From: an uncultured Pirellula sp.
Lineage (GTDB): Bacteria > Planctomycetota > Planctomycetia > Pirellulales > PNKZ01
Assembly (NCBI GenBank): GCA_964633125.1
Contig: CAZWDN010000001.1
Coordinates: 2,827-66,826, forward strand
Direction of reading: 5' to 3'
Length of the DNA: 64,000 bases
The notes below the pieces were generated by a model. The model was not told where the DNA came from. It was given only the letters and a program-made list of their open reading frames with translations, and ran no database searches. Position 1 is the first letter of the stretch, and every line of letters begins with the position of its first letter. Below, one piece after another: positions 60,902 through 62,450 of the stretch. Made by a program: the position numbers and the translations under genes.

Positions 60902-61279
60902 ATGAAACAAGTCGCCACCGTCTACGTCGTCGATGATGAGGAGCCGATTCGCAACGCATTCGAGGTGTTGCTGCGCGGTCGAGCAATGGAAGTCCGCACA
61001 TTCTCCTCCGCCGAAGCGTTCTTGCACGCGTATGCGGACGACTGGGTCGGCGTGCTGCTCGTCGATGCAAGAATGCCGGATATGGACGGCTCGGCTCTGT
61101 GCCGGGAGTTGGAGCGGCGCAACAGCTCGCTGCGAATCATCCTCATGACCGGCGACGAAGACGCCGACTCGCTGACGGCGGCTTTGGGCGGCGGAGTCCG
61201 GATGCTGGAGAAGCCTTTTAAGGCCGAAGAGGTCGTGAACTCCTTGCTGGCGAGCGGGATGTTTTCTCGGCAGACGTGA
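60902..61279 (+). CDS. Single-domain response regulator receiver
   Basis: Start MKQVATVYVVDDEEPIR. Contains VLLVDARMPDMDG, LMTG and LEKPF. It has no output domain and starts 16 nt after the kinase stop. Confidence 0.8.
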   Translation: MKQVATVYVVDDEEPIRNAFEVLLRGRAMEVRTFSSAEAFLHAYADDWVGVLLVDARMPDMDGSALCRELERRNSSLRIILMTGDEDADSLTAALGGGVRMLEKPFKAEEVVNSLLASGMFSRQT

Positions 61280-61441
61280 GTCGCGAACGGAGCCGCGTCA
61301 ACCGCTGATTTGGCCGGCCAAAACCGCTCTGGAATTTGGGCCGGCGATTCGGGGACAATGCGGAGTGAGGCGCGGCATCGTCGTGGCCCCGGATGAGTCG
61401 TCGGGGGGCCAAGTAAGAAGGGGAGATGCCGCGCGGCGAAA

Positions 61442-61650
61442 TCGACGTAAGTCTTTCGATTTGCGACGCGCTTTCGCCGGACTTACGTCGACGGTCGAAA
61501 ACGACCTGCGCACATAAGTCGAGTTATGTGCGCACAACCCCAAAACCCACAAGGGGTGCGCACATAACTCGACTTATGTGCGCACCCTATCACCGAGAGT
61601 CGACTTAAGTCGCGCAGCGGCGAGTCGAAACCGGCAGAACTTACGTCGAC
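61442..61650. repeat. About 209-bp structured unit bounded by 11-bp terminal inverted repeats (MITE/REP-like or multi-hairpin terminator)
   Basis: TCGACGTAAGT at 61442-61452 matches the reverse complement of ACTTACGTCGA at 61639-61649. An internal copy, GACTTACGTCGACGG, lies at 61480-61494, and ACTTACGTCGACGG is repeated at 61639-61652. Also present are the GGTCG-AAAA-CGACC hairpin (61493-61506), the 28-bp pair, and the 12-bp palindrome CGACTTAAGTCG (61601-61612). The unit lies between convergent genes. I see no target-site duplication. Confidence 0.55.
61507..61584. repeat. Perfect 28-bp inverted repeat pair (each copy itself an 11-6-11 palindrome) separated by 22 bp
   Basis: Copy 1 (61507-61534) is TGCGCACATAAGTCGAGTTATGTGCGCA. 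Copy 2 (61557-61584) is TGCGCACATAACTCGACTTATGTGCGCA, the exact reverse complement of copy 1. Within each copy, TGCGCACATAA pairs with TTATGTGCGCA. The spacer is CAACCCCAAAACCCACAAGGGG. Confidence 0.95.
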
Positions 61651-61740
61651 GGGAGTGCGCGAATGAGCGTCGAACATTTAGCCCCCGGTCGCCGACGGCG
61701 GGTCCCCTGCGCGAAGCGCCGGCTCAAGGAGAGCATGACG

Positions 61741-62157
61741 CTACGACTCCAGAAACTTTTTGATCCGCTCAGCCGTGCGATCCAGAGCTTGCGGCTTCAG
61801 TCGGCATTCCCAAACGACGAGGGCGCGCCAGCCTTCGCGGCGCAGAAGTTTGCGAACTTCGGCGTCGCGGGCCTGATTGCGGGCAAACTTTGCGAGCCAG
61901 AACTTCTTGTTGGCGGCGGGCGTCGACCGGCCGCGCGGGCAGCGGTGGCGGTGCCAGAAGCAGCCGTGAACAAAAATGACTTTGCGCCGACCGGCAAACA
62001 CCAAGTCGGGGCTGCCGGGAACGTGGCGGCCGTGGAGCCGATAGCGATAGCCGAGACTCGACACGATGCGGCGGACCGTCAACTCCGGCGACGTGTGGCG
62101 CGAGCGGACGGCTTGCATCACGCGACTACGCTCAGCGACGGTAAACACATCGGTCAT
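61741..62157 (-). CDS. vsr: Very short patch repair endonuclease (Vsr)
   Basis: Start MTDVFTVAERSRVMQAVRSRHTSPE (138 aa). Vsr hallmarks: RYRLHGRHVPGSPDLVF, IFVHGCFWHRHRC, NKKFWLAKFARNQARD and GWRALVVWEC. Confidence 0.8.
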   Translation of the reverse strand: MTDVFTVAERSRVMQAVRSRHTSPELTVRRIVSSLGYRYRLHGRHVPGSPDLVFAGRRKVIFVHGCFWHRHRCPRGRSTPAANKKFWLAKFARNQARDAEVRKLLRREGWRALVVWECRLKPQALDRTAERIKKFLES

Positions 62158-62450
62158 GCGGCGGCGACGCGGCGAAGGGGAGCAGTGAGCGTTCGTAAGG
62201 AAACAATCAGCAACACGGCCGCCACGACGCCCGGATGCGGCGGGATGTCTTGGTCGCACGGGATGCCGCGGCGGAGCCCTTCATGATAACGTTGCCACGC
62301 TTCGGCGACATGAATCGGCGCCGCTCGATGAGCGACGGCGGTCGGCGGGGAACCGGCGGGGTTCGAGTCGCCGCCGATTTGTTGAATGATCTGCCAACCG
62401 CAGAGCACCGCCGTGGTGAAGAGCACCAAATGAACGAAGTAACGCAGCAT
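62154..62450 (-). CDS. Possible small two-helix membrane protein translationally coupled to vsr
   Basis: Start MLRYFVHLVLFTTAVLCGWQII (98 aa), with a C-terminal hydrophobic stretch GVVAAVLLIVSL. G/C dominates at third codon positions. The stop overlaps the vsr ATG (ATGA). No family recognised, so it could be spurious. Confidence 0.35.
   Translation of the reverse strand: MLRYFVHLVLFTTAVLCGWQIIQQIGGDSNPAGSPPTAVAHRAAPIHVAEAWQRYHEGLRRGIPCDQDIPPHPGVVAAVLLIVSLRTLTAPLRRVAAA

Follow-up and report, generated by a model that had tools for sequence, protein, structure and literature searches.

Between a response regulator receiver gene and a vsr gene of an uncultured Pirellula sp., a 64,000-nt stretch of contig CAZWDN010000001.1 (assembly GCA_964633125.1; the whole stretch is called the window here) contains a dense cluster of nested palindromes, and the question is what kind of element this is. 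An earlier note, made from the letters of the window, had proposed as candidates a mobile repeat resembling miniature inverted-repeat transposable elements (MITEs) or repetitive extragenic palindromes (REPs), an elaborate bidirectional terminator or RNA-stability element, and paired operators for a dimeric DNA-binding protein. The element was found to be one member of a dispersed repeat family. Besides these solo units, the genome contains one unit in which the same sequences enclose a gene for a protein similar to the small subunit of phage terminases (TerS). The solo unit appears to be the gene-less form of this master unit, composed of the two flanks of the terS-like gene. To judge from the sequence comparisons, it may be a pac-like recognition cassette for the orphan TerS-like protein, a reading that we consider evenly balanced between true and false.

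Copy number, distribution and architecture of the family

The genome that contains the window (G000) is a Pirellula-like metagenome-assembled genome (MAG) of 5.9 Mb in 682 contigs that is 95% complete, and all genomes compared with it were MAGs as well. A BLAST search of this assembly, a check named in the earlier note, showed many dispersed copies, with about 80 places matching the element. A 21-nt linker rich in C and A, AACCCCAAAACCCACAAGGGG, was exact in 64 copies, 77 copies were detected with an 18-mer when two mismatches were allowed, and a profile search added about eight further copies that were diverged or truncated. The element thus belongs to a repeat family and is not a locus-specific oddity. 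Many of the copies were located at contig ends, and the family therefore breaks assemblies.

Among 41 related genomes, three of the six congeneric ones contained the family, compared to none of the 35 from other genera. The 19-mer AAACCCACAAGGGGTGCGC occurred in only two others among 185,579 species genomes, namely the MAGs 'Pirellula sp. PB1.007' (G005) and 'Pirellulales bacterium 5N533' (G002), and about 24 metagenome contigs with the family were found. A box hairpin of the form GACGTAAGT-N10-30-ACTTACGTC was also common in two more congeners, with 86 and 7 matches, and was missing from the 35 genomes of other genera. The congeners G001 and G004 contain a sister type that is alike in architecture and has different central palindromes and a different linker (ACATACTTAGGAATTAAAGG). 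The unit had no BLAST match in phage and plasmid collections, a 16-mer scan of viral contigs gave only chance matches without the hairpin, and no description of the family was found in literature searches. The family is an undescribed non-coding repeat, in kind to be placed beside bacterial interspersed mosaic elements (BIMEs), BOX and Correia elements.

A multiple alignment of 65 copies showed the order F1 box, variable spacer of about 17 or 28 nt, R1 box, link 1, left 28-nt palindrome, invariant linker, right 28-nt palindrome, link 2, F2 box, spacer and R2 box. The four 11-bp boxes (TCGACGTAAGT) form two inverted pairs that enclose the palindromes. Minimal copies consist of R1, core and F2 only, measure about 130 bp and have 12-bp inverted ends. 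All items listed in the earlier note map onto this F1-R1-core-F2-R2 plan. In other subfamilies, link 1 contains an additional palindrome half-site. Such a fifth half-site was seen in many PB1.007 copies (before the left palindrome, GGTTATCTACGCAC) and in many 5N533 copies (after the right palindrome, CTGCGCCCATAAC), giving chains of alternately complementary segments in which alternative hairpins are possible.

These results practically dispose of the view that the element is a terminator or a chance cluster of palindromes specific to the gap between the receiver gene and vsr. Its position between convergent genes would suit this view, and on the minus strand the left palindrome followed by GGTCGTTTTC scores terminator-like. 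It is refuted by copy number, about 85 copies being spread over all kinds of intergenic regions, by zero matches expected by chance and by the conservation of the family across species. At up to three mismatches, the number of 28-mer matches expected from shuffled window sequence was zero, and five matches to the 12-mer box were observed compared to 0.32 expected. An intrinsic terminator scan gave no plus-strand site in the cassette and one weak minus-strand site, at the left palindrome. The bidirectional terminator suggested earlier found no support, since the scan detected no plus-strand hairpin followed by a T-run in the cassette and copies also occur in divergent and tandem gaps.

A gene-bearing master copy and its terS-like gene

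The terS-like gene was located by means of a metagenome contig (L093), on which the promoter-like head of the unit is followed by a ribosome-binding site and an open reading frame (ORF) of 132 amino acids (L093:415-810, minus strand). The final codons of this ORF, TCG ACG TAA, constitute an F box, after which come palindrome, linker, palindrome and R box. The same head-gene-cassette arrangement was found in PB1.007, in 5N533 and in the genome of the window (C75:9211-9576), where it is the sole copy of the gene. In G001 and G004, a terS-like orthologue is followed by the hairpin-linker-hairpin of their own cassette type. The ORF matched PHROG families annotated as 'terminase small subunit' (E 3e-12), and its match to Pfam Sf6_terminase was weak and below the cut-off. 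A search of the window's genome with Pfam Terminase_2 (PF03592) and a sequence search of PDB with the TerS-like protein gave no match.

Homologues of the TerS-like protein were present in 32 of the 41 Pirellulales genomes. A genome of another genus (G007) carries an orphan terS-like gene followed by a different cassette, with boxes GAGTTTGTACCC and a 22-nt linker GTTACCCCGGGGTCCATGGTGG, and this cassette type is also dispersed (13 and 2 copies in two genomes). G003, a congener in which the repeat is absent, contains a single homologue (34% identity), which lies immediately next to a gene for the terminase large subunit, TerL (PHROG E 4e-52). TerL (phrog_38) was detected in five of the six congeneric genomes, at G005:C18:9139-11153, G004:C166:222-2304, G002:C26:266236-268306, G003:C21:55703-57780 and G001:C346:25745-27379. 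It directly follows a small-terminase paralogue in G005, G004, G002 and G003, and no adjacent terS match is listed for G001. Four of the five best TerL matches read through one or two in-frame stop codons, and the locus could be a decaying prophage or a remnant resembling a gene transfer agent (GTA).

The copy in the window

The features of the window copy, all given on the plus strand, are as follows.

61297 to 61359, plus strand: promoter-like head ('P module'), with GTCAAC at 61297-61302 and the core GGCCGGCCAAAA at 61312-61323
61330-61335 and 61354-61359, plus strand: boxes of the head, -35-like TGGAAT and -10-like GACAAT
61360 to 61441, plus strand: variable leader from head to cassette, 39% identity between orthologous copies
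61442 to 61453, plus strand: outer left box F1, TCGACGTAAGTC, 90% identity between orthologues
61454-61479, plus strand: F1-R1 spacer of 26 nt, unconserved, 66% identity between orthologues
61480 to 61491, plus strand: box R1, GACTTACGTCGA, inverted copy of F1, 94% identity between orthologues
61493 to 61506, plus strand: link-1 mini-hairpin GGTCG-AAAA-CGACC, kept as GGYCGAAAACGRCC in the main subfamily of this genome
61507 to 61534, plus strand: left 28-nt palindrome with half-sites a and b, which co-vary across copies and species
61535 to 61556, plus strand: linker, C plus AACCCCAAAACCCACAAGGGG, in which CCCC and GGGG can pair to give the apical loop AAAACCCACAA
61557 to 61584, plus strand: right 28-nt palindrome with half-sites c and d, which co-vary across copies and species
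61600 to 61612, plus strand: box F2, degenerate here (TCGACTTAAGTCG; family consensus in the 65-copy alignment TCGACGTAAGTCG)
61639 to 61650, plus strand: box R2, ACTTACGTCGAC, outer right end of the cassette, 99% identity between orthologues

The left neighbour is the receiver gene (Response_reg), which ends at 61279, and the right neighbour is a gene for a Vsr endonuclease (61741-62259, minus strand); these Pfam matches bear out the earlier placement of the element between convergent genes. The long hairpin described earlier, a 28-bp stem with a 22-nt loop formed by the 28-mers at 61507-61534 and 61557-61584, was found at exactly these positions with 100% complementarity. Taken as 61507-61535 and 61556-61584, the arms measure 29 nt, are 100% complementary and have 20 nt between them. 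As also claimed, each 28-mer can fold on itself, being a near-palindrome on its own (93-94%), and one is a direct copy of the other at a distance of 50 bp. The pairing between the 12-mers at 61442-61453 (TCGACGTAAGTC) and 61480-61491 (GACTTACGTCGA) is perfect. The mini-hairpin GGTCGAAAACGACC (61493-61506) and the 12-bp palindrome CGACTTAAGTCG (61601-61612) are both visible in the sequence, the latter because the F2 box is degenerate in this copy. GCNGNACTTACGTCGACGG is present twice (61476-61494 and 61634-61652) and the box recurs at 61639-61650. The 209-bp cassette and its 11-bp terminal inverted repeats were confirmed. Its start and its symmetry were revised, since the repeated unit begins further left, at about 61297, and is asymmetric (about 61297-61652). 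The earlier note had overlooked the promoter-like head at 61297-61359, which gives the unit its direction, and the gene-bearing master copy elsewhere in the genome. Folding of both strands, proposed as a check, showed a very stable structure, with a predicted fold of -153 kcal/mol (z = -10) for plus-strand RNA of 61375-61665 and z = -11 for the minus strand of this region, one long hairpin being predicted from either strand.

The promoter-like head

When copies from three genomes were oriented by the linker, the head was located upstream and in the same orientation in 108 of 133 copies, and 57 exact GGCCGGCCAAA[AT] sites in the window's genome precede a cassette. Conservation was strong in the core and the -35-like box and moderate in the -10-like box, and the 17-nt spacer varied freely (85 copies compared for the boxes). 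The -35-like box reads CTGGAG, or TTTGAA in 5N533, and the weaker -10-like box TAnnnT; some copies have an extended -10, e.g., TGTTATAAT and TGGTAGAAT, and some have TGnTAnAAT. The head in the window is of the same subtype as that of the master copy. To judge from this pattern of conservation, the head may act as a promoter.

The window's genome also contains solo GGCCGGCCAAAA heads without a cassette, 29 of them with enough flank (e.g., C106:8102 and C164:2806). In 12 of 21 intergenic cases, these are located 79-200 nt upstream of co-directional ordinary genes. They are often mirrored (TTGAC...TTTTGGCCGGCCAAAA...CTGGAG), as if they were the shared core of divergent promoters. The family may mark promoters.

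A head of this kind raises the possibility that the unit is a small, self-contained transcription unit that acts through its RNA, in which the head would be the promoter and the cassette would give a stable hairpin RNA with a C/A-rich apical loop, serving as a small RNA, an antisense RNA, an RNase III substrate or a leader or stabiliser of neighbouring genes. We regard this as unlikely. The fixed polarity from head to cassette (108/133), with three promoter layouts at the same position, is in its favour, as are the solo heads upstream of co-directional genes (12/21), the nearly identical head and leader start in some orthologous pairs (e.g., C168/L062) and the extreme predicted stability (z about -10). 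However, the head of the window copy (TGGAAT-18-GACAAT) gave no match in a strict sigma-70 scan. No Rfam family was recognized either, the covariance models returning only noise (E > 4) on 61200-61900, and there is no directional terminator: the T content past the right end equals that of the opposite strand at the left end, and the tails after the right end showed no T enrichment compared to the mirror position. Moreover, the unit faces the 3′ end of a convergent gene in 33 of 59 cases.

Genomic placement, inheritance and conservation

Gene positions were taken from rough codon-usage ORF calls made in this analysis. All 64 exact-linker copies lie clear of predicted genes. Downstream of the unit, the next gene runs in the same direction in 26 cases and convergently in 33, and orientation is therefore random relative to the neighbours. 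Convergent gaps were over-represented (17 of 48 copies compared to 601 of 3254 gaps genome-wide), and divergent and tandem gaps were also found to hold copies.

For 56 copies in the other two MAGs, the flanking sequences were placed on the window's genome. The PB1.007 copies were mostly found at orthologous sites that are also occupied there. At a few sites only one of the two species has a copy, and there the whole unit, including the head, is either present or missing, with no duplication to be seen. For the histidine kinase at the window locus, no clear orthologue was found in the congeners, and filled and empty sites were therefore compared at other loci. The comparison of filled and empty sites proposed in the earlier note showed presence or absence of the whole unit, but did not give insertion boundaries at the base level because the flanks were too diverged in the three comparisons. 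Most copies are old and in synteny, and they appear to be inherited vertically, with occasional gain or loss of whole units.

Pairwise comparison of 14 orthologous pairs showed that conservation is specific to the modules: the head core was 98% identical, the linker 97% and the boxes 90-99%, compared to 83-84% for the palindrome arms, 66-72% for the spacers and 39% for the leader. The four half-sites of a copy are usually of one variant, CAG in all four in PB1.007, CCC in all four in 5N533, and TAC, CAC or CAG in all four in the window's genome, and the arms differ between species in a compensatory manner. In an alignment of 56 sequences, 90.3% of the cells were paired under a model of two hairpins and 91.5% under a model of one long hairpin; none of 500 shuffles reached the observed pairing, and slid controls gave 19-43%. 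The palindromes appear to be constrained for pairing and not for sequence, since three arm variants coexist in one genome. As orthologous copies carry the variant of their own species, copy-to-copy correction within genomes must operate.

The compensatory changes in the stems also count in favour of the RNA-level transcription unit considered above. Against it, the boxes are conserved in sequence beyond pairing, and no consistent sense-strand bias was seen, G.T versus A.C mismatches being 43/2 in the right palindrome and 16/67 in the left, as counts that are not independent of each other.

Comparison with known classes of repeats

The suggestion of a MITE- or REP-like mobile repeat held as far as the dispersed repeat family is concerned, but membership in either class did not, since the defining tests failed. 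Terminal inverted repeats of the MITE kind are present, both at the outer ends (TCGACGTAAGT...ACTTACGTCGA) and at the inner ends of minimal copies (ACTTACGTCGAC...GTCGACGTAAGT). No target-site duplication was found beside the outer or the minimal ends, and none was visible in the three comparisons of filled and empty sites. A search of the window's genome for ORFs between paired ends returned the terS-like unit only and no transposase-bearing relative. On these two grounds, a MITE was rejected.

Correia elements (CREE) of Neisseria, which can carry promoters and are cut by RNase III, are similar to the family in being non-coding, about 130-350 bp long and present in dozens of copies, with 11-12-bp terminal inverted repeats and long hairpins. 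In the same way as a MITE relates to its insertion sequence, the solo unit retains both ends of the gene-bearing unit and lacks the gene. The family differs from these classes in having no target-site duplication, in that its 'autonomous' gene encodes a small helix-turn-helix (HTH) terminase-like protein and not a transposase, in that most copies are ancient and syntenic, and in the asymmetry of the unit, only one end of which carries the head.

The BIMEs of enterobacteria, including the RIP type, are mosaics of inverted REP palindromes with fixed linkers that are bound by integration host factor or gyrase. Like these, the family consists of dispersed, strictly intergenic palindrome mosaics with alternating orientation and conserved linkers, has subfamilies defined by combinations of modules, is common at the 3′ ends of genes and has no coding capacity. 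It is unrelated to them in sequence, its palindromes lack the GTAG tag, genes similar to REP-associated tyrosine transposases (RAYTs) are flanked by other hairpins, and the unit is directional, with a promoter-like head and a master copy that bears a TerS-like gene.

REPs of the GTAG and CGTC types have an unpaired 4-nt tag, stems of 8-9 bp and loops of 4-5 nt (Di Nocera et al., 2013; PMC3733652). They resemble the family in being short palindromes that often form head-to-head pairs mostly downstream of genes, and the CGTC type further in having no dedicated transposase and in that the family box contains CGTC. In contrast, the family has its CGTC within a paired box, loops of 13-28 nt and 28-mers that bear no tag. 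No GTAG was found before the 28-mers, the preceding letters being GGGG, GTTG, GGCC, etc. An REP/RAYT element was rejected for want of a GTAG or CGTC tag and because the RAYT-like genes have other hairpins at their flanks; a CGTC-tagged REP was rejected by the definition in PMC3733652, as the CGTC lies inside the paired box.

Two RAYT-like Y1_Tnp genes (Pfam) were detected in the window's genome, at C49:9974-10672 and C119:316-645. Each is flanked by inverted hairpins of its own, CCCAGGTTGC..GCAACCTGGG, with 12 matches genome-wide when both strands are counted, and CCCGGGGC..GCCCCGGG, respectively. The C49 gene lies just upstream of a head and cassette, with the cassette 400 bp downstream and on one side only. 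In addition, two families of GTAG-headed hairpins occur in this genome inside the leaders of many units or just downstream of them, e.g., at C2:64950-65245, C79:12749-13154 and C9:5591-5946, and are absent from the window copy. The first (GTAGGGAACGCC...GGCGTTCCCTAC; 112 matches) often forms inverted doublets, and the second consists of GGCACACGGAGTGTGCC followed by TAC. They look like classical REP/REPIN, and at orthologous sites only one of the two species has them.

A purely selfish, non-autonomous repeat of the general MITE/BIME/BOX kind, whose ends and palindromes would be recognized by a recombinase in trans, probably as single-stranded hairpins, is a broader alternative and one that we hold to be possible, if rather unlikely. 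The terS-like gene would then be only the place of origin or landing, and the head a passenger. Such a repeat would be expected to be dispersed, intergenic and randomly oriented relative to its neighbours (26 versus 33), as was observed, and the enrichment in convergent gaps, the gain or loss of whole units between species and the patchy, genus-limited distribution are consistent with it. So are the modular variants (R-core-F minimal, F-R-core-F-R full and forms with an extra half-site) and the species-specific arm variants at orthologous sites, which imply homogenization between copies. However, neither a target-site duplication nor a transposase copy was found, no copy is split around an ORF except the one with the terS-like gene, and the RAYT-like genes are flanked by different hairpins. 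The copies are mostly old and syntenic, box, linker and head core are kept at 90-99% as the spacers drift, and an analogous gene with a dispersed cassette of unrelated sequence exists in another genus.

Proposed recognition by a TerS-like protein

Small terminases are oligomeric HTH proteins that recognize several short boxes over 100-300 bp, as in SPP1, lambda and P22, and these boxes are located in or beside the protein's own gene, sometimes overlapping its promoter. The solo unit would be a comparable recognition platform, because it consists of a head and a box-rich cassette in which the boxes and the head core are kept at 90-99% and the spacers drift. In our preferred reading, that of a solo recognition cassette, the boxes, possibly together with the GGCCGGCC head, would be binding sites for an oligomeric TerS-like protein, in an arrangement reminiscent of the multi-box pac and cos regions that are recognized in phages. 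The palindromes would serve as base-paired DNA (hairpin or cruciform, extruded or single-stranded), or as RNA if the head fires. In the master unit, the head would drive the terS-like gene, with the cassette located 3′ of the stop codon. The copies would mostly be inherited vertically, with occasional gain or loss of whole units, and would be kept alike within a genome by copy-to-copy correction. The earlier idea of operators for a DNA-binding protein may therefore have been near the truth, the candidate protein being TerS-like and not a classical repressor.

The pac and cos regions (pacL-pacC-pacR of SPP1 and the R sites of lambda cosB) have in common with the family short repeated boxes within about 200 bp, beside or overlapping terS and a promoter. 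The location in or beside the terS gene that is typical of pac was seen in the master copy only, where the stop codon lies in box F and the cassette comes next. The family differs in that the terS-like gene is an orphan without an adjacent terL gene. Chromosomal look-alike sites can be used by small terminases, as for P22 and for Staphylococcus aureus pathogenicity islands (SaPIs). The family is unlike such sites in consisting of exact members in about 85 copies with long palindromes, and not of weak chance look-alikes. Pseudo-pac sites of the latter kind have been described (PMC10996546; PMC6687093).

Several observations weigh against recognition by the TerS-like protein. The proposed link between gene and cassette is one of adjacency and of shared distribution across six genomes of one genus and one further genus. 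With homologues in 32 of 41 Pirellulales genomes, the terS-like family is not specific to the genomes that carry the repeat. Neither TerL nor a terS-terL module was found in the window's own assembly (95% complete), and the failure of the window head in the sigma-70 scan counts here as well. The coexistence of three arm variants in one genome means that no single protein can read the arms base-specifically. The covariation reflects about three lineage-wide events, in which two self-hairpins and one long hairpin are inseparable, as are RNA and DNA, and palindrome symmetry can also persist by template switching without selection. The family, its architecture, polarity and age, the module-specific conservation and the relation to the flanks of the terS-like gene are shown by the sequence data. 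The recognition, selfish-repeat and RNA readings are not fully exclusive.

A further-reaching form of the recognition reading is that the orphan chromosomal TerS-like protein and its about 85 cognate cassettes make up one host system, with lineage-specific versions across Pirellulales; on the sequence comparisons, we consider this doubtful and quite improbable. The cassettes would be true pac-like entry sites at which the TerS-like protein recruits TerL to package or cut host DNA, the TerL being supplied either by the genus's own conserved terS-terL module or by an infecting phage. This would result in site-directed gene transfer, GTA-like or SaPI-like on a chromosome-wide scale, or in a decoy against phage packaging.

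Dispersed palindromic repeats such as REP, BIME, BOX and Correia elements are common, and their partner protein and origin are mostly unknown. For the present family the origin is clear, namely the two flanks of a single small gene, and a DNA-binding protein similar to phage small terminases is a candidate partner. The gene is conserved across a planctomycete order and has a different dispersed cassette in a second genus. What recognizes and maintains such repeats becomes a testable question with this family. If binding is true, this would be, to our knowledge, the first known domesticated terminase subunit with a chromosome-wide set of sites, and the finding would matter for gene transfer and phage defence in a phylum that has received little study. 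Should binding prove false, the family remains a well-defined new non-coding element.

A similar hairpin in soil-type metagenome contigs

A perfect hairpin, CCGCACCC(C/T)TGAAA(A)CCCACAAGGGGTGCGG, was found in unrelated soil-type metagenome contigs (L089, L091, L100/L110 and L092/L104/L120/L122). These loci gave no match in Rfam. Upstream of the hairpin are AGAGTCAA and a purine-rich stretch of about 300 nt, and HTH/ImmA-like and DUF262-like genes are located nearby. The hairpin shares its loop and inner stem with the linker of the family, a likeness that could be due to convergence or to a shared protein-binding loop.

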